Below are positions 54,932 to 64,000 of a stretch of 64,000 bases of DNA, piece by piece. The notes beneath the pieces were generated by a model. It had not been told where the DNA came from. It searched no databases and saw nothing but the letters and a program-made list of their open reading frames with translations. The stretch lies in NCBI GenBank assembly GCA_964356815.1, contig CAYHIR010000004.1, positions 842 to 64,841 of the forward strand, given 5' to 3'. A program made the translations under genes and the position numbers. This DNA is from an uncultured Candidatus Saccharibacteria bacterium. Its GTDB lineage: Bacteria > Patescibacteriota > Minisyncoccia > Phycocordibacterales > DATGWK01. Each line of letters starts with the position of its first letter. Within the stretch, counting starts at the first letter, position 1.

Positions 54932-55003
54932 GCGCCCATGGTGAAATGGATATCACAAGCGACTTCGGATCGCTTATTGTGGGTTCGAGTCCTGCTGGGC
55001 GCA
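54932..55003 (+). tRNA. tRNA-Arg (anticodon TCG)
   Basis: Manual cloverleaf. Acceptor GCGCCCA/TGGGCGC, U8, D-arm, anticodon stem AGCGA/TCGCT, loop CTTCGGA, T-arm GTGGG-TTCGAGT-CCTGC. Confidence 0.7.
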
Positions 55004-55035
55004 CTGCGAAGACAGATATAAGACAAGTTTCATAC

Positions 55036-55106
55036 GCGGGTATGGTTTAGTGGTAGAATGCGTCCTTGCCAAGGACGAGACGAGAGTTCGATTCTCTCTA
55101 CCCGCA
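55036..55106 (+). tRNA. tRNA-Gly (anticodon GCC)
   Basis: Acceptor GCGGGTA/TACCCGC. Anticodon stem CGTCC/GGACG with loop TTGCCAA. T-loop GTTCGATTC. Confidence 0.85.
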
Positions 55107-55180
55107 CACTAAAGGACCATAGGGGTCAAAAGACAGTAAAAAGGCCAAAACTGTGGATAAGTCTGGGGACATGTGTATAA
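55098..55180. repeat. Further TAAAGGAC motif copies (CTAAAGGACCA 55100; TATAAAGGACAT 55166) directly after tRNA-Gly
   Basis: The same core recurs in the xth-cca gap and twice inside cca. Confidence 0.4.
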
Positions 55181-55265
55181 AGGACATTTTCGTAAAAGTC
55201 AGTGATTTTTTGTCCTATATCTATTAAATGGCTATAAACAAAGGTTTTTGAGAGTTTTCTCTGTG

Positions 55266-55385
55266 TTTCACGTGAAAAACGGTGCGTTTGAGACTGTTTT
55301 GGGGCAATTTTAGGCATATTTAAACGAAAAAGTGTTTCTTAAGAAACGTTTCGACCCTTCTCCTGGGGGGGTATTTCACGTGAAA
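55266..55385. repeat. Palindromic GTTTC-N4-GAAAC sites: TTTCACGTGAAA at 55266 and 55374; GTTTCTTAAGAAAC at 55333
   Basis: Three perfect 12-14 bp palindromes clustered within 180 bp upstream of the YraN-like gene start. Confidence 0.55.
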
Positions 55386-55445
55386 CGCCATCTTTAACCA
55401 TTCTTAAAGTTTTCTTTAGGGTGTTTATGCTAATTTTCTGTAATT

Positions 55446-56006
55446 ATGACCACAAAACAAATTTCAAAGAAGGTAAACGCTAGAAAATGGGCAATTATAA
55501 GGAATAAAAAGAAAAAGGAGGCATCTGGCGGATCTGAGAATCAAAAGCTAGGATTTGTAGGGGAACAGGTAACTAAGAAACATCTTTTGTCTAAAGGATT
55601 GGAGTTCGTTTCTTCCAATTTTCGCCGAAAATATGGCGAAATTGATCTAATAATGAAGGTTCCTGCTGGAGCTGGTGTGGCCGGTAGGGGCAGAGAAAGA
55701 CTGATGTTTTTCGAGGTCAAAACTGTTTCACGTGAAAGGTTCGATGGTTCTTTGGTGGGGAATCGGCCAGACATTTCACGTGAAACATCAAAAGGCCGCA
55801 CTTTTGGGGAGGGTTTTAATGATTATCGCCCCGAAGACAACGTTAGTGTCTCAAAAATTAGAAAGACTCGGAGGATTATAAAAATATGGCTGGAGGAGAA
55901 CAAAATGTCTGAATCGGCCGACTGGAGCTTTAATGTAGCGCTCGTGTATCTATCTAAGTCTGAAAAGAAGTTTTATATAAAGATTTTGTGGGATGTCATC
56001 CTCTGA
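55446..56006 (+). CDS. YraN-family (UPF0102) endonuclease-like protein with internal insertion
   Basis: LSKGLEFVSSNFRRKYGEIDLIM..LMFFEVKT matches the YraN core (GEIDLI..FVEVKTR). Two TTTCACGTGAAA palindromes lie inside the ORF. Confidence 0.5.
   Translation: MTTKQISKKVNARKWAIIRNKKKKEASGGSENQKLGFVGEQVTKKHLLSKGLEFVSSNFRRKYGEIDLIMKVPAGAGVAGRGRERLMFFEVKTVSRERFDGSLVGNRPDISRETSKGRTFGEGFNDYRPEDNVSVSKIRKTRRIIKIWLEENKMSESADWSFNVALVYLSKSEKKFYIKILWDVIL
55726..55785. repeat. Two more TTTCACGTGAAA palindromes (55726, 55774) inside the YraN-like coding sequence
   Basis: The identical 12-mer recurs 48 nt apart and flanks a ~16-codon segment that looks like an insertion. Confidence 0.5.
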
Positions 56007-56084
56007 TTTTCGATTTTCAATCTCCTATGCTACGATAGCCATTGTCCTTTAAGCGCAAAAACGCGCCGACGGCAACTAGCTAAA

Positions 56085-56156
56085 CGGGGCGTGGTGTAAC
56101 GGTAACATGCTTGACTTGGGATCAAGTGACTCCGGGTTCGAATCCCGGCGCCCCGA
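56085..56156 (+). tRNA. tRNA-Pro (anticodon TGG)
   Basis: Acceptor CGGGGCG/CGCCCCG, U8. Anticodon stem CTTGA/TCAAG with loop CTTGGGA. T-arm CCGGG-TTCGAAT-CCCGG. Confidence 0.85.
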
Positions 56157-56299
56157 AATCATATAGACCAGGGATTATTAAAACAAGGTTTTCCTTGACA
56201 TGGGCTGAAGGCTGTGATATTTTCTTTGAGTTATTGTATCAAAATGATAACCTCGCTACGGAGGGTCGTAGCAACAGTTCTTTCAAAAAGGAGGAAATC

Positions 56300-57064
56300 T
56301 TGGCTAGAATAAAATCAAAACAGACCACTCTCGCACCATTCTTGGTTGAGAGTGGGCAACGCGGCGGAAACATTTTTCGAGTCGTGTCTGTGGCTGATGG
56401 CGTAACTCGCGAGCAGATCGAAACGCTGCTTACGAAGTTACCGATCCGTTTTAAGATTCACAGGTTCCCGTCGTGTTATCAAGAGCACAGTATCAACGAG
56501 CCGCTCGAGGTTCATGTTGAAGGAAGTATCGTCTACATCTATCCAACTAAAGATCGGATCATCGCTTGCACGACGCTCGATTCGTGGGGATCTGCTGATG
56601 TGGTGAGTCAGATGCATGTCGACAACATGATGGACACGCTTAGTCCTGGCCGAGGACAGCTTCGAACGTGCATCCACTTCGACCCGAAAGTTCTCGGCAT
56701 TGAAGGTTGGCCAAACACCTCGGAGGCCACGGCTGAGCTTGAGGTCGATATCCATGTCTATTCGATTGGAAAGACGTTGGAGCCTCAGATGCGTCCGCCC
56801 CAACTCGACAAATTCCAGCTACGCGATCTTCTTCAACTGATCGCTGGAAAAGAGCGGTCAATCTCAGTCCGGCAATTTGATCGCTGGAGGGATCTGATCA
56901 TGTATTCCGTCGCACACATGCGATTTGTCTACGAAGGTATGCCGGGAGATGATCCTACCCGTGACTACTATGGAATGGTGTGGAGAGAGTTTGATGCGGC
57001 CACTGACAGCGAAGGTGTGGTTCGGGCACTGGATTCTCTTGTCAGTGCGATTAACTATCAGTGA
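56300..57064 (+). CDS. Hypothetical protein (TTG start with AAGGAGG RBS); the track ORF start at 56111 overlaps tRNA-Pro
   Basis: RBS AAGGAGG lies 5 nt before an in-frame TTG. GC content is higher than the flanks. No domain recognised. Confidence 0.4.
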   Translation: MARIKSKQTTLAPFLVESGQRGGNIFRVVSVADGVTREQIETLLTKLPIRFKIHRFPSCYQEHSINEPLEVHVEGSIVYIYPTKDRIIACTTLDSWGSADVVSQMHVDNMMDTLSPGRGQLRTCIHFDPKVLGIEGWPNTSEATAELEVDIHVYSIGKTLEPQMRPPQLDKFQLRDLLQLIAGKERSISVRQFDRWRDLIMYSVAHMRFVYEGMPGDDPTRDYYGMVWREFDAATDSEGVVRALDSLVSAINYQ

Positions 57065-57137
57065 CTCGTTTTGTTCGTTCTGCCAACTTCAAGAGCGCGT
57101 GTAGAGAAAAAAATCTATACGCGCCTTTTCATTTGAA

Positions 57138-57482
57138 GTGTTAAACTTAATAAACAATCTTATGTTCAAGAAAACCCGCGAAGATTTTAAGTGCGGCAAA
57201 TGTGGCCTGCCCATGGAAGGGGACGGTTTTACAAATCATTGCTCCGCGTGTTTGTGGAGCAAGCACGTTGATATTCATCCGGGCGATAGGGAAATGGTCG
57301 ACAAATGCGGTGGCTTTATGGAGCCGGTGCGCATCGAAGGTGGTACCGACGCGAAGGGTGATGTCACCAAATACACCATCGTGCATGTTTGTGAAAGTTG
57401 CGGCTTTGAGCGACGCAATAAGGTGTCGGAGCGTGACAATTTTGAAACTGTGCTTAATATAGTGGAAGAGGCGGCGAAATAG
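57138..57482 (+). CDS. Small Cys-rich zinc-ribbon protein (RNHCP-like)
   Basis: CGKCG..FTNHCSACLWSKHVD..CESCG Cys pairs. 114 aa. Confidence 0.4.
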   Translation: MLNLINNLMFKKTREDFKCGKCGLPMEGDGFTNHCSACLWSKHVDIHPGDREMVDKCGGFMEPVRIEGGTDAKGDVTKYTIVHVCESCGFERRNKVSERDNFETVLNIVEEAAK

Positions 57483-57500
57483 CTGTTGCCGCCGAAAATC

Positions 57501-57571
57501 GCGGGTATGGTTTAGTGGTAGAATGACTGCCTTCCAAGCAGTAGACGAGAGTTCGATTCTCTCTACCCGCA
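57501..57571 (+). tRNA. tRNA-Gly (anticodon TCC)
   Basis: Same acceptor, D and T arms as the GCC isoacceptor. Anticodon stem ACTGC/GCAGT with loop CTTCCAA. Confidence 0.85.
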
Positions 57572-60616: not shown

Positions 60617-61396
60617 CTAAAGTTTCCTCGCTGTGTTAAACATGTAGTCAAATATTTTTTCAAATGTTTCTCGCACACTTTCATTTTCAATAATTGTGGT
60701 AATTATGTTGTTTTTAAAGTCGATAATCGCCACCTTGTTACCATATATTGTTATCTGTGCGGGGACATCAAAATCGTCAACGATTCGCCGATCAACCAAA
60801 AACGAAGCGTCTTCTTTTCTCTGTATTTCAATGTCTGCTTCTTCTCTATTTTCACTTAAAGCGCCTGGTAATGCTCCAACAATTTTTGTTTTTAATCCAG
60901 CTGATACTCTAAGACCCCGCTGTTTTTTTATTAAAGCTTTGTTTTCAGGAAAGGTTCTGTCTAAGTGGGAACGAAACAGCTTTATGTCCTCCCCGCTCCT
61001 TATGATGTCCTGATGCAACTCTTCTAAACCGCTTAATCCCTCTCCAAAACGAACGCTAGGTTTGCCGATCGTAATGTTGTATGAAGAAATGGCGTTACCG
61101 ATTTCTGCCCTTATTTGATTGAATGAATTCTCAATAATCACCCGTTTCTCCTCTACCATATCGAGGATTCTCTGGGGGTGTTCGGCCCTGAAGATGGCAA
61201 TCTCTCCCTTATTTTCTATTTTTTGGGCGAGCTTGAGAGATGTAAGTTGATTTAAAATCTTATATACAAAACTCCTCTCCATCTCACAGAGCCTAGAAAT
61301 TCTACTTGCCGGCAAGCCTTTATTTTTAAGAAGAGCATCGTAAATTTTTGCTTGTTCTTCGGTCAATCCAGCTGATAAAAAGAGTTTTTGATACAT
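60617..61396 (-). CDS. TrmB-family transcriptional regulator
   Basis: N-terminal wHTH LTEEQAKIYDALLKNKGLPASRISRLCEMERSFVYKILNQL. Confidence 0.6.
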   Translation of the reverse strand: MYQKLFLSAGLTEEQAKIYDALLKNKGLPASRISRLCEMERSFVYKILNQLTSLKLAQKIENKGEIAIFRAEHPQRILDMVEEKRVIIENSFNQIRAEIGNAISSYNITIGKPSVRFGEGLSGLEELHQDIIRSGEDIKLFRSHLDRTFPENKALIKKQRGLRVSAGLKTKIVGALPGALSENREEADIEIQRKEDASFLVDRRIVDDFDVPAQITIYGNKVAIIDFKNNIITTIIENESVRETFEKIFDYMFNTARKL

Positions 61397-61566
61397 GGTC
61401 TTTATAAATTGTTATAGATTTGTAACAAATATATCGTATAGAAATAACGAAAAAAGTCAACATGTTATGGGTAATATAACACTAAAATTATAAAATGTTA
61501 TAAATACATTGACAAATTTAATGAATGTGATAGTGTATCTGCAGAAAGTTTTTATCTGCCTCCCTA

Positions 61567-61602
61567 AGGGGCTTCTACCCAGTAATATATCGTAGAAGCC
61601 CA
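61567..61602 (+). ncRNA. Long perfect hairpin GGGGCTTCTAC-N13-GTAGAAGCCC in the cassette leader (function unknown)
   Basis: 10 bp perfect stem, extended by CCCTAAGG/TTAAGGGG flanks. It sits where the other cassette units carry a hammerhead ribozyme. Confidence 0.4.
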
Positions 61603-61651
61603 TTAAGGGGGACGGATATGTGTTCTTTAAACCTTTTATAGGAGATTTGAA

Positions 61652-61756
61652 ATGGCCCAAGGAAAAGGTTTTGTGTTACGAATTGGCACAAGTTTAACAG
61701 TCGTCATCGTCTGTGGCCAAATGGTGAGCCTGGAAAAGCAGTGTTCCCGAAGTTGA
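61652..61756 (+). CDS. Tiny ORF (34 aa) behind the conserved GTGTTCTTT..AGGAGATTT leader
   Basis: The leader is near-identical to the one preceding ORF 62683. Manual translation gives MAQGKGFVLRIGTSLTVVIVCGQMVSLEKQCSRS. Confidence 0.3.
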   Translation: MAQGKGFVLRIGTSLTVVIVCGQMVSLEKQCSRS

Positions 61757-61775
61757 GAGCTTCGATGGAAACTCT

Positions 61776-61828
61776 CTCTGTCGCAAAGTGTGTACTTTGC
61801 CTGACGAGCTTGAAAGGGCGAAACAGAG
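61776..61828 (+). ncRNA. Type III hammerhead ribozyme (copy A)
   Basis: GUC cleavage triplet. Stem I hairpin GCAAAGU-GUGU-ACUUUGC. Core CUGACGA. Stem II GCUU-GAAA-GGGC. GAA. Stem III ACAGAG pairs with upstream CUCUGU, with an A15.1-U16.1 pair. Confidence 0.8.
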
Positions 61829-61863
61829 ATGTTCTTTCAAAAGAATTTAGCAGGAGTTCTACC

Positions 61864-62220
61864 ATGAAGGTATGCCATATCTGTGGAAACCATGGATCCG
61901 TGACCATCATTGAAATGGTCACTTGTTCCAAGGGTTGCTGCAAAGCAACTCGCAACCAATTTGGATTGAAGATCGTTGAAGGAGGAGACCCGAGCAAGTG
62001 TGGCGGTGCAGAAAAGCATGCCGCAGTCGGGATTTGTGGGAGGTGTGTTGAAGAAAAAACCTGCGGAAGATACAGTCATCTTCCAATTCCAGGAGGAAAA
62101 CAGGCACCACCCCCTGCTCTTCCACCTCGATCTTCTTCGAATTCGAAATCAGTTGTGTCTGACACATCTGATCTAGAACGACGGAGGAGAAATACTTCGG
62201 TTAGATTCCGGAGCGCTTGA
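61864..62220 (+). CDS. Cys-rich small protein (118 aa) downstream of hammerhead A
   Basis: RBS GCAGGAG then ATG. Multiple CxxC/CC pairs (CHICGN..CSKGCC..CGRCVEEKTC). The track ORF 61741 start would overlap the ribozyme. Confidence 0.5.
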   Translation: MKVCHICGNHGSVTIIEMVTCSKGCCKATRNQFGLKIVEGGDPSKCGGAEKHAAVGICGRCVEEKTCGRYSHLPIPGGKQAPPPALPPRSSSNSKSVVSDTSDLERRRRNTSVRFRSA

Positions 62221-62266
62221 TAAGCGAGTACTATCGGAAGTTTTGGGAGACTTCAAAAAAATCTCC

Positions 62267-62318
62267 CTCTGTCGTGAAGTGTGTACTTCACCTGATGAGT
62301 CTGAAAAGACGAAACAGA
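62267..62318 (+). ncRNA. Type III hammerhead ribozyme (copy B)
   Basis: GUC. Stem I GUGAAGU-GUGU-ACUUCAC. CUGAUGA. Stem II GUCU-GAAA-AGAC. GAA. Stem III ACAGA/UCUGU. Stems co-vary relative to copy A. Confidence 0.85.
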
Positions 62319-62359
62319 AAAAGTTCTTTGAATTTACACCACTGTATTGGGAGATAAAC

Positions 62360-62638
62360 ATGATGATCAAGAAGGATCAGGTTCATGCCGATTTTCTCAT
62401 TGGTGCGTGCATCCGGACAGGGTGGCCGACGGAAGAGGTGATCCCGCTTGTTTACGGGGCGTCTCAACCAGAGGTGGATCGCCTTGTCGAGCACTGTCTC
62501 GAGAGAAAAGAGTTCTCGTTGGCTTTCGACGCTACGTACCTTGGTGCGTCAGAGGCAATGAAGGACCGTGTGGTGACGGCTCACATTCAAAACCGCCGCC
62601 CATTCCCACCCGGACCACCGTCGTGGTTCCGGGAATAA
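62360..62638 (+). CDS. Small hypothetical protein (92 aa) downstream of hammerhead B
   Basis: RBS GGGAG then ATGATG. Higher-GC composition. Confidence 0.45.
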   Translation: MMIKKDQVHADFLIGACIRTGWPTEEVIPLVYGASQPEVDRLVEHCLERKEFSLAFDATYLGASEAMKDRVVTAHIQNRRPFPPGPPSWFRE

Positions 62639-62682
62639 AGACGAAACAGAAGTGTTCTTTTCACCACCACAGGAGATTTCAC

Positions 62683-62916
62683 ATGGAATTTGTCGTTATT
62701 GTGATCAAAAACACCGGTCCGGAAGGTTCGTTTGAGAGCCGTGTCAACGTCCTAGACAACACCCTCCAACCTCTCGGGTCCATTGTTTGTGTTCACCACC
62801 CCGACGATCCATCCGACCAGCGCCGGGTGCAGCTACACAACCCTTGGCATGCCGCGGATGTAGAGGAACACATCGCACGGCAAGGTTTCAAGGTGGTGAA
62901 GAGATATCGTGGTTAA
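62683..62916 (+). CDS. Small hypothetical protein (77 aa) behind a degenerate hammerhead 3' half
   Basis: Leader AGACGAAACAGAAGTGTTCTTT..AGGAGATTTCAC, then ATG. Confidence 0.45.
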   Translation: MEFVVIVIKNTGPEGSFESRVNVLDNTLQPLGSIVCVHHPDDPSDQRRVQLHNPWHAADVEEHIARQGFKVVKRYRG

Positions 62917-62957
62917 GTCCACAAACGTTTTCGGTTCACGTTAAGCAACCGAAGCCA

Positions 62958-62980
62958 CGATCAATTGATCGGGTTTTTTT
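62958..62980 (+). terminator. Rho-independent terminator (CGATCAATTGATCG hairpin + GGTTTTTTT)
   Basis: Perfect palindrome followed by a T7 run, right after the last cassette ORF. Confidence 0.55.
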
Positions 62981-63000
62981 ATTATATTTTTACCGAAAAA

Positions 63001-64000
63001 TTATCTGGCAAACTCAGTGGCCCTCATCTCGCGGATGACGTTGACCTTTATCTCGCCTGGGTATTTGAGCTCGTTTTCGACGCGTAAAGCTATATTTCTA
63101 GCCATTTCTTTGGCTTCGAGGTCGGAAACTTGGGCAGGGAATACGAAGACGCGGATTTCGCGGCCGGCTTGGAGAGCGTACGATTTTTCTACGCCGGCAA
63201 AGGAGCTGGCTACTGCCTCGAGCTCGGAAAGGCGCTTGAGATAGTTTTCAACGCTATCGCGGCGGGCGCCAGGGCGACTACCAGAGATGGCGTCGGCAGT
63301 TTGGACAATAATAGACTCAATAGTCTCATACGGATATTCTCCATGATGAGCCTGCATGGCTTTGATGATTTCTTCGCTGGCGCCAAATTTTTGCAAGATG
63401 CGGCGGCCGATTTCTACATGCGAGCCAGCCACTTCATGATCGACAGCTTTGCCGATATCGTGAAGAAGGGCGCCAGCTTTTGCCACGGCCACATTTGCGC
63501 CGAGCTCTTCAGCGAGCATGCCGGCGATATGTGTCATTTCTATAGAATGCTGAAGCACATTTTGTCCGTAGCTTGTGCGGAAATGAAGGCGGCCGACGAT
63601 AGAAACAATGCGCGGGTCTAAGTTGAACACTCCCGCTTCATAAACGGCTTGTTCACCTTTTTCTTTTATAATTTTGTCTATCTCTTGTTTGGCTTTTTCA
63701 ACCATCTCCTCAATTTTCGCAGGTTGAATACGTCCATCTTGAATGAGATTTTCGAGAGCAACGCGCGCTAGCTGGCGGCGTACTGGGTCGAAAGAGGAGA
63801 TAGTGATGGCGCCTGGTGTATCGTCGACAATTATTTCCACACCCGTAGCGCGCTCGAAGGCCTTGATGTTTCGTCCTTCTTTACCAATAATTTTGCCCTT
63901 CACTTCGTCTGAAGGAATCGGCACGATGGTCGTCATAATTTCCGAAGACACAGAAGTGGCAAGGCGTTGAATAGTGACAGCCAAAATATCTTTGGCGCGG
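63001..64000 (-). CDS. rny: Ribonuclease Y, C-terminal part; N-terminus lies outside the window
   Basis: KH domain (KGKIIGKEGRNIKAFERATGVEIIVDDTPGAITISSFDPVRRQLARVALENLIQDGRIQPAKIEEMVEKAK). HD domain (LLHDIGKAVDHE). Confidence 0.85.
   Translation of the reverse strand, partial: RAKDILAVTIQRLATSVSSEIMTTIVPIPSDEVKGKIIGKEGRNIKAFERATGVEIIVDDTPGAITISSFDPVRRQLARVALENLIQDGRIQPAKIEEMVEKAKQEIDKIIKEKGEQAVYEAGVFNLDPRIVSIVGRLHFRTSYGQNVLQHSIEMTHIAGMLAEELGANVAVAKAGALLHDIGKAVDHEVAGSHVEIGRRILQKFGASEEIIKAMQAHHGEYPYETIESIIVQTADAISGSRPGARRDSVENYLKRLSELEAVASSFAGVEKSYALQAGREIRVFVFPAQVSDLEAKEMARNIALRVENELKYPGEIKVNVIREMRATEFAR

Follow-up and report, generated by a model that had tools for sequence, protein, structure and literature searches.

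The window considered here, i.e. the whole 64-kb stretch of DNA that was analysed, belongs to a 94.5-kb contig (ENA ERZ1292619) of a Patescibacteria (candidate phyla radiation, CPR) metagenome-assembled genome recovered from the groundwater of Hainich well H41. Towards its end, a cassette of approximately 1.4 kb (61500-62990) with four small open reading frames (ORFs) of 34, 118, 92 and 77 aa, each led by a Shine-Dalgarno (SD) sequence, is placed between a minus-strand TrmB-family gene (60617-61396) and a convergent RNase Y gene (rny, from 63001). Besides the ORFs, the cassette contains two complete type III hammerhead ribozymes (HH1 and HH2), one gutted hammerhead copy, a 5' leader hairpin and a modest terminator. 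In the following list P1 to P4 denote the four ORFs and their products, R1 a covariance model built from 58 relatives, and numbers with the prefix L related contigs and loci.

60617-61396, minus strand: TrmB-family regulator gene, 259 aa (PF01978, 37.2 bits)
61397-61558, unstranded: divergent control region (promoter elements and repeats)
61559-61611, plus strand: leader hairpin of the primary transcript, 20-nt arms (inverted repeat, fold z-score -3.4)
61605-61651, plus strand: unit 1 leader (repeat family D2, 71% identical to the HH1 copy)
61652-61756, plus strand: P1, 34 aa, putative coding (ORF list; called as a gene in L004)
61748-61776, plus strand: predicted pseudoknot 1 (read from the sequence; family enrichment)
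61776-61842, plus strand: HH1 with tail (R1 80.4 bits, intact core)
61864-62220, plus strand: P2, 118 aa, Cys-rich (ORF; L001 homologue)
62237-62267, plus strand: predicted pseudoknot 2 (read from the sequence; listed in the pseudoknot class)
62267-62334, plus strand: HH2 with tail (RF00008 44.3 bits; R1 78.7 bits)
62360-62638, plus strand: P3, 92 aa (ORF; third-position bias against L006)
62616-62665, plus strand: gutted hammerhead (R1 12.9 bits; repeat D2, 83%)
62683-62916, plus strand: P4, 77 aa (ORF; NCBI hypothetical protein)
62958-62980, plus strand: intrinsic-terminator-like site (5-bp stem CGATC/GATCG, then T7)
63001-64000, minus strand: RNase Y gene of the right flank, convergent, truncated at the window end (PF12072, KH, HD)

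All four ORFs are present at the lengths given in the initial annotation of this sequence, with an ATG and a GGAG-type SD 6-9 nt upstream, and the unit starts that it had placed at about 61555, 61776, 62267 and 62637 proved correct. The terminator that it had called strong does exist as a site, formed by a stem at 62958-62971 and T7 at 62974-62980, but with a stem of only 5 bp its strength was overstated; the site marks the end of the cassette and the end of a block of high identity with L006. The higher GC content and deviating composition claimed for the cassette are true relative to the left flank only (cassette 48.4%, TrmB gene 38.5%, rny 50%). At the 89.5th percentile of the 1.43-kb windows within the 64-kb stretch, the cassette is not an outlier, and a foreign composition was rejected on this ground.

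Ribozymes and leader modules of the cassette

HH2 (62267-62320) matches the type III hammerhead family of Rfam (RF00008) at 44.3 bits (cmscan, E 6e-8). With the family model R1, 80.4 bits (E 9e-18) were obtained for HH1 (61776-61830) and 78.7 bits (E 2.5e-17) for HH2. Each copy has a GUC site and a full core including A15.1-U16.1, the conserved segments being CUGACGA...GAAAC in HH1 and CUGAUGA...GAAAC in HH2, and the initial description of two intact hammerheads is borne out by these complete cores and scores. Cleavage is predicted between C61782 and G61783 in HH1 and between C62273 and G62274 in HH2. The two ribozymes lie 491 nt apart on the same strand with P2 between them.

The third unit keeps AGACGAAACAGAAG (62639-62652), the same sequence as in the 3' part of HH2. 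More fully, the gutted copy retains GUCGUG, then AAAGACGAAACAGAAG (62637-62652) and then the tail GUUCUUU (62654-62660), and it is without the 3' half of stem I and the CUGAUGA core. Its R1 score is only 12.9 bits (E 0.87), in agreement with the earlier view of this unit as a ribozyme remnant. The reading frame of P3 runs into the gutted hammerhead and ends inside it. Because the third ribozyme core is lost, this copy is predicted to be inactive, with P3 and P4 staying joined on a dicistronic RNA.

Contigs from three independent runs (L005, L007, L008) start at window position 62271, 3 nt before the HH2 cleavage site, and the L002 contig ends inside HH2 (window 62297). These contig breaks suggest a branch in the assembly graph, i.e. 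strain heterogeneity of the upstream cassette.

A 24-nt repeat comprising the ribozyme 3' end and the tail occurs in four copies in the window, with 67-83% identity. The tail GUUCUUU is found at 61622-61628 in unit 1, at 61831-61837 after HH1, at 62323-62329 after HH2 and, as noted, in the third unit; units 1 and 3 have thus kept it despite having no working ribozyme. The unit 1 leader consists of a degenerate ribozyme 3' end and the tail, followed by the SD AGGAGA at 61640-61645. Ahead of it lies the perfect 10-bp hairpin (61569-61578/61592-61601) that had been reported in place of a ribozyme; it was confirmed, and is set inside 20-nt arms (61559-61578/61592-61611) that are 85% complementary and fold at -36.3 kcal/mol (z-score -3.4).

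Directly 5' of both complete hammerheads lies a predicted H-type pseudoknot, an element that went unmentioned in the initial annotation, as did the lineage-wide array system described below. Pseudoknot 1 (61748-61776) reads CGAAG-uu-GAGAG-CUUCG-auggaaa-CUCUC, shares bases with the P1 stop codon and directly adjoins HH1 stem III. Pseudoknot 2 (62237-62267) reads GAAG-uuuu-GGGAGA-CUUC-aaaaaaa-UCUCCC, and in its L001 orthologue both helices are kept through different bases. Both window copies fit the S1a-S2a-S1b-S2b order of an H-type pseudoknot, and the element appears to tolerate base changes. Taken together, the module at each cassette junction would open with a hairpin or H-type pseudoknot, continue with a type III hammerhead and the tail GUUCUUURAA, and close with a short leader and an SD.

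The proteins themselves are largely orphans. As initially stated, P1-P4 belong to no recognizable family, with no match in Pfam, PHROGs or PADLOC, and no homologues of P1, P3 or P4 beyond self matches were found among 5.8 billion proteins. P1 is called as a gene in L004 and has no homologues or family; its coding status is putative. The homologue search that the initial annotation had proposed gave, for P2, one homologue at 52% identity among the same 5.8 billion proteins, and a profile search recovered a family of five clusters only among 1.84 billion representatives. In L001 the P2 homologue shares the start Met and has an intact Cys pattern, and a hammerhead comes after it. This 1.7-kb contig has the layout of the window, with a P2-like gene, pseudoknot, hammerhead, tail, next gene and then the module again. 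In the public annotation P2 is a 151-aa protein from the ATG at 61765 (window 61765-62220, L003:9083-9538), running through pseudoknot 1 and HH1. The start at 61864 (118 aa) is supported as the probable true one because the L001 homologue and the SD agree on it. An AlphaFold2 model of P2 is unusable (predicted local distance difference test, pLDDT, 43). P3 is predicted to be a five-helix bundle (pLDDT 71) with no fold match in PDB or BFVD at E below 0.2, and five of its eight substitutions relative to L006 are at third codon positions. P4 is listed at NCBI as 'hypothetical protein [Patescibacteria group bacterium]'.

Related arrays and their chromosomal setting

Relatives were sought as a hammerhead subtype having a 6-bp stem I with UGUGUA loop and a 4-bp stem II with RAAA loop. 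A pattern that also demanded GTTC 6-7 nt after GAAAY, the later tail bases not being demanded, found 87 metagenome loci and 41 genome loci. The genome loci, on contigs of up to 997 kb, are almost all from Patescibacteria (Paceibacterota, Saccharibacteria, Nomurabacteria, Taylorbacteria and Zambryskiibacteriota). R1 matches number 148 + 89 = 237 in 120 sources and form same-strand arrays of up to six per locus. The spacing from hammerhead to hammerhead is mostly 271-2000 nt and usually accommodates one ORF of 60-200 aa that starts 5-100 nt past the ribozyme. The subtype also occurs on 58 IMG/VR phage contigs, in some cases in 3-4 copies, usually with a 5' hairpin and a nearby SD and never with the tail (0 of 62 phage hammerheads).

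Covariation points to selection on the ribozyme fold. In a gapless alignment of 58 sequences, 94% of helix cells are paired as against only 33-46% in slid controls, and double-sided changes number 264 versus 76 in shuffles, none of the 500 shuffles being as high. Stem I is paired in 99.7% (six of six pairs covarying), stem II in 100% and stem III in 85% of the relatives, and mutual information recovers the three hammerhead helices only. Hammerhead U4 is normally invariant. A CCGAUGA core variant (U4 to C) with intact, covarying helices was nevertheless seen in L001 (1360-1414) and also in L099, L105, L131, L139 and L179; because of that normal invariance, such copies may be slow or conditionally active ribozymes. 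Separately, IMG/VR records of 322-377 nt (L032, L040, L067) carry a hammerhead of the same subtype and are presumably viroid-like or satellite RNAs unrelated to the arrays.

The tail GUUCUUU(R)AA follows the ribozyme at 6-7 nt in approximately 200 related hammerheads from some 120 Patescibacteria and metagenome loci. Beyond the demanded GTTC, positions +4 to +6 are 77-95% U and are followed by R-A-A, and the tail or near variants of it, for example GAUCUUUGA and GCUCUUU, are frequent also in those hammerheads of the same loci that came from the model and not from the pattern. Chance low-complexity similarity, which the initial annotation had allowed for as an explanation of the repeated leader, does not account for it, because the leader is conserved family-wide. 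Mutual information for the tail is nil, and position 15.2 shows no covariation with tail +7. The tail is a primary-sequence motif. A role as promoter -35 was rejected on the logo and by inspection, there being no conserved -10 at the proper distance, and a role as TrmB operator is unlikely in that the control region repeats differ (TGTTATA, TGTAACA) and the tail keeps a constant orientation and spacing relative to the ribozyme. Its geometry, with the stem III base 11 nt before UUU|G, could fit a hairpin-stabilised transcription pause, which might allow the ribozyme time to fold.

A hairpin ending 0-1 nt before stem III precedes 193 of 203 unique copies. In about 30% of these hairpins (57 of 193; 19.7 +/- 3.9 expected, maximum 29 in 300 permutations) an H-type pseudoknot arises by pairing of the 5' part of the hairpin loop with the segment just upstream. 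In these pseudoknots loop 1 is short and rich in pyrimidines, A makes up 61% of loop 3, and many different S1 sequences occur. On the other side of the ribozyme, a perfect hairpin of at least 12 bp lies between tail and SD in 36% of units as compared with 2.5% in shuffles. One subgroup of these, with the conserved base UUGGUUGG...CCACCAAC at 10-20 nt past the tail (L097, L112, L116, L117, L128, L151, L173), precedes small, partly membrane-like ORFs and may represent a distinct RNA element or cassette family.

The cassette proteins are hyper-diverse: 19 of 94 fall in eight small clusters, and Pfam matches were obtained for about a dozen of 66, every one to a different family (among them GT8, uridine kinase, Band 7, TrmB, Csx3, CYTH, histidine phosphatase, DnaJ Cys-rich, receiver and HTH). 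PADLOC identified a few as CRISPR type III ancillary-like (Csx3, Csx3-AAA, DHH, Csx20, HIT). From their sequences, a few cassette proteins look like nucleotide-signal degraders (Csx3, DHH, HIT, CYTH).

The TrmB-family regulator that had been reported beside the cassette is confirmed by a PF01978 match of 37.2 bits (cut-off 25.6) over residues 10-72, i.e. an N-terminal winged helix, and its gene is divergent from the cassette. It is likely the regulator of the array. Of 124 loci, many of them short, 37 have a TrmB-like ORF at 0.3-2 kb from a hammerhead, as against 0 of 58 phage loci; the ORF is mostly upstream and divergent relative to the array, as in the window. The arrays of L087, L169, L172, L085 and L106 have an orthologue of the window TrmB (E about 1e-50) at their head. 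They also show a TTGACA promoter, a long leader hairpin (seen at the 5' end in L087, L172, L169 and L085) and a first cassette without ribozyme. A conserved leader hairpin CAGAAACGAUAGG...CUGUCGUUU together with the promoter was located in L087:11234-11940, L169:2861-3566, L085 (reverse strand) and L172:976-1995, with a compensatory change in L172. The conserved leader of L087 and L172 was also considered as a permuted hammerhead; its motif order fits no hammerhead topology and it is a 9-bp hairpin. The first cassettes of the orthologous-TrmB loci differ, one set encoding a protein of about 115 aa ('YFGFGIAPSMFP...NPSHKATI') and the other a protein of about 130 aa that is also found in L102 and L186 cassettes.

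Among flank ORFs (n=135) the commonest families are TrmB (17), HD (8), trigger factor (5), ClpP (4), RNase Y (4) and CCA-adding enzyme (3). The rny gene adjoins the array in L195, in the same order as in the window, and in L186, L166 and L076. Phage structural or integrase families are absent from the 25 most frequent of 73 flank Pfam families, singletons below these being unlisted. Because the TrmB linkage and the rny, ClpP and trigger factor neighbours recur, the array position appears to be a conserved chromosomal hot spot and not a prophage.

In the window, the minus-strand TrmB promoter is TTGTCA-17-TATAAT (61515 to 61487), and a perfect -35-like TTGACA is present on the plus strand at 61509-61514. 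The control region between 61410 and 61502 contains TGTTATA three times and the palindromic TGTAACA (61421-61427), which also adjoins the TrmB start in L087, L172 and L085. These repeats are candidates for TrmB operators; across the window, matches to the operator-like motif are not enriched (24 versus 22.7 expected). The TrmB-cassette intergenic region also includes an 18-nt direct repeat (61402-61419 and 61488-61505).

Cassette exchange, proposed transcript cutting and alternative explanations

Arrays were compared between genomes. The cassette of L006, from another sequencing run, is 97-100% (98.8%) identical to that of the window, whereas the adjoining rny genes are only 85-89% (87%) identical, with the break at about 63000. 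In L172 and L169, TrmB and the leader are 76.5% identical and the first cassettes unrelated, and from the hammerhead 5' edge onward identity is 97.8% over 3.9 kb. Because arrays are far more alike between genomes than their flanks, cassettes evidently move between lineages, with hammerhead modules probably marking, or perhaps mediating, the joints. The initial suggestion of a 'mobile or phage-derived' module is therefore retained in its first part, in the different sense of cassette exchange between genomes; its phage-derived part is not supported, the cassette lying at the recurrent TrmB/rny site.

The window locus is best explained, with a probability of about two in three, as a small member of a Patescibacteria-wide locus type in which a TrmB-like regulator stands beside a divergent operon of interchangeable small-gene cassettes and the operon transcript is cut by ribozymes into insulated mRNAs. 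A single transcript would start near 61540 and end at about 62980. HH1 and HH2 would cut themselves as they fold during transcription, after C61782 and C62273, to give RNAs for P1, P2 and P3-P4. Upstream products would end in a 2',3'-cyclic phosphate six nt past a pseudoknot with an A-rich loop, which should impede 3' exonucleases, and downstream products would begin with a 5'-OH and a compact ribozyme fold, which should impede 5'-end-dependent decay. Every gene would thereby receive the same leader whatever its upstream neighbour, and the module would act as a natural insulator that allows genes to be swapped within the operon. The initial annotation had proposed mRNAs individualised by ribozyme cleavage, and the cutting of one transcript into individual mRNAs is most likely the best form of that idea; the published reading of clustered bacterial hammerheads is likewise the cutting of a transcript into individual mRNAs (PMC3088659).

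Several observations weigh against this reading. Cleavage and expression at this locus are predictions from the sequence. HH1 was unreported by cmscan against Rfam, and HH2 falls below the gathering score of RF00008, so that neither window copy reaches the required 48.5 bits. Stem II of HH1 has 4 bp, two of them G-U pairs, and minimum free energy folds of the isolated regions show no significant extra stability over shuffles (z -1.4). The window copies are without the long post-tail hairpin of other units. No consensus plus-strand -10 was found in the control region, and the cassette promoter is for this reason only inferred. Pairing of the tail in cis, with the hairpin loop, the 5' flank or as a stem III alternative, was rejected for want of complementary k-mer enrichment, leaving its insulation role a guess. 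The sub-threshold Rfam scores reflect the threshold and not structural failure; only one of approximately 65 copies in 15 array-rich loci passes it.

The most serious alternative, which can coexist with transcript cutting but is itself on the unlikely side, is that the hammerhead modules are mainly portable DNA homology for the gain, loss and exchange of cassettes and that RNA cleavage is secondary. It would explain the sharp break near 63000 between window and L006, the step in identity at the hammerhead 5' edge in L172 and L169, the breaking of assembly graphs at HH2 in three runs, the stretches of 32-33 nt at 100% identity that hammerheads share within an array, and the direct repeats of ribozyme 3' end plus tail (62305-62328 and 62637-62660) that flank P3. 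Selection on DNA identity alone, however, is not what helix covariation and the conserved core reveal, and the longest run of identical bases common to HH1 and HH2 is 12. Both partners have a ribozyme at the break points, which prevents these from being assigned to its inside or its outside. A broader scheme in which both functions are combined is more doubtful still: a patescibacterial cassette platform comprising a TrmB-controlled fixed array, whose pseudoknot-hammerhead-tail borders serve as both RNA insulator and exchange joint, would be a ribozyme-based analogue of the integron, possibly with circular or cleaved RNA intermediates. A remnant prophage or other integrated mobile element between trmB and rny with ribozymes inherited from phage, as the initial annotation had it, is improbable. 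The subtype, the 5' hairpin and the nearby SD do occur on the 58 IMG/VR contigs (with 3-4 copies on some), the proteins of the cassette are orphans, and a near-identical cassette resides in a genome whose rny differs by 13%. Yet the position beside TrmB, and in several genomes also beside rny, recurs in distant Patescibacteria whose most frequent flank families include no phage structural or integrase family, the tail and TrmB linkage are absent from all phage copies, GC content is inside the genome range, and no att-like direct repeats bound the cassette.

Hammerhead-made ends are substrates of RtcB-type ligases. Units between two ribozymes, such as the 491-nt P2 unit, might hence be excised and ligated into circular RNAs, either as stable circular mRNAs or as intermediates of cassette movement. 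The 5'-OH and 2',3'-cyclic-phosphate ends would suit such ligation, the 5' strand of HH2 stem III (CUCUGU) pairs perfectly with the HH1 3' strand (ACAGAG), better than with its own, and DNA identity blocks start at the ribozyme edge. Against this highly improbable route, no reverse transcriptase occurs among cassette or flank families, neighbouring L001 ribozymes have stem III strands that do not match, the units are chromosomal with SD-led ORFs, and circular or spliced products of clustered bacterial hammerheads were sought by Perreault et al. and none found (PMC3088659). Least probable of all is a view of the ribozyme copies as non-functional repeats in decay and of the small ORFs as something other than genes. 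One of three copies is already destroyed, P1, P3 and P4 have no homologues, and both complete ribozymes fall short of the Rfam gathering score; but some 200 copies show an invariant catalytic core and covariation in all helices, P2 has kept 52% identity and its Cys pattern in the homologue, substitutions in P3 favour third codon positions, and an SD precedes every ORF.

Relation to known systems and further observations

Clustered hammerheads flanking single genes are known from bacterial prophages (Perreault et al. 2011, PLoS Comput Biol, PMC3088659). Cleavage has been shown for hammerheads of A. tumefaciens, A. caulinodans and C. scindens, with polycistronic RNAs cut in vitro and in vivo (PMC3088659). 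Both the ribozyme class and the idea of operon-RNA cutting are thus already known (PMC3088659). As in those clusters, the Patescibacteria hammerheads lie on the same strand between varying genes of one transcription unit, where cutting into mRNAs of single-gene or operon length was proposed, and the window has the at least two same-strand copies flanking genes that define such a cluster. It does not have the prophage or integrase location; the Patescibacteria arrays are instead chromosomal at a recurrent TrmB/rny-linked site without such context. They differ further in that all copies are of one type III subtype with a lineage-specific tail and 5' pseudoknot, and in that an array can comprise up to six units, mostly with orphan small genes. 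No description of hammerheads in CPR/Patescibacteria was found in the searchable literature, and the combination of lineage-wide spread, fixed TrmB/rny-linked site, pseudoknot, tail and hyper-variable exchanged cassettes appears to be undescribed.

Relative to RF00008 in general (viroid, satellite, plant and phage copies), the family of the window shares the core, the three-helix junction, the open stem III and the GUC site; however, it lies mostly below the gathering threshold and has a stem I fixed at 6 bp with the UGUGUA loop. In RiboJ-type insulators a hammerhead removes variable upstream RNA, and the defined leader that remains, often with an added hairpin, gives context-independent expression. 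The same working principle is proposed here, and the long hairpin between tail and SD of 36% of relatives adds to the likeness, whereas the Patescibacteria system is natural, serial within one operon and leaves a 5' pseudoknot at the 3' end of the upstream product. MALAT1/PAN-type RNAs have a processed 3' end guarded by an adjacent A-rich higher-order structure. The likeness is by analogy only, consisting of a cleavage-made end beside an A-rich structure; the Patescibacteria element is a predicted H-type pseudoknot six nt before the ribozyme-made end and not a demonstrated triple helix.

Integron arrays resemble those described here in their promoterless, mostly single, hyper-diverse small genes of one orientation at a fixed chromosomal site, with expression from one end and rapid exchange. 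The Patescibacteria junction is, by contrast, a sense-RNA ribozyme module and not a recombination hairpin with R and L boxes; the window flanks contain no IntI, no attC sites were found, and GTTCTTT does not fit GTTRRRY. As compared with retrozymes and viroid-like RNAs, the units are bounded by hammerheads but carry SD-led ORFs, with no reverse transcriptase among the cassette or flank families.

The biological role of bacterial hammerheads has awaited an explanation since 2011, and this locus type provides hundreds of natural replicates with a ribozyme at every junction of a fast-changing gene array, as well as two extra conserved parts, the 5' pseudoknot and the 3' tail, that are open to direct testing. 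It also hints at the way in which Patescibacteria, with their reduced genomes and dependence on hosts, maintain and express a variable pool of accessory genes, and the module would be a ready-made natural insulator for synthetic operons. Nearly all copies are missed at the Rfam thresholds, which leaves the arrays invisible to current annotation, and some ORF calls run on wrongly across the ribozyme.

On the contig, Pfam scan and annotation further place HU, an NAD-dependent epimerase, ClpP, trigger factor and NusA in the neighbourhood. A 2.7-kb stretch of the window (54932-57571) holds four tRNA genes, approximately 3 kb upstream of the TrmB gene, and in L107/L156, another Hainich Patescibacteria contig with a TrmB-headed array of six ribozymes, three tRNA genes lie just upstream of TrmB. 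Downstream of rny, an rve-family transposase gene is found between ClpP and RsmE (L003:13948-14808), approximately 3.6 kb past the window end.

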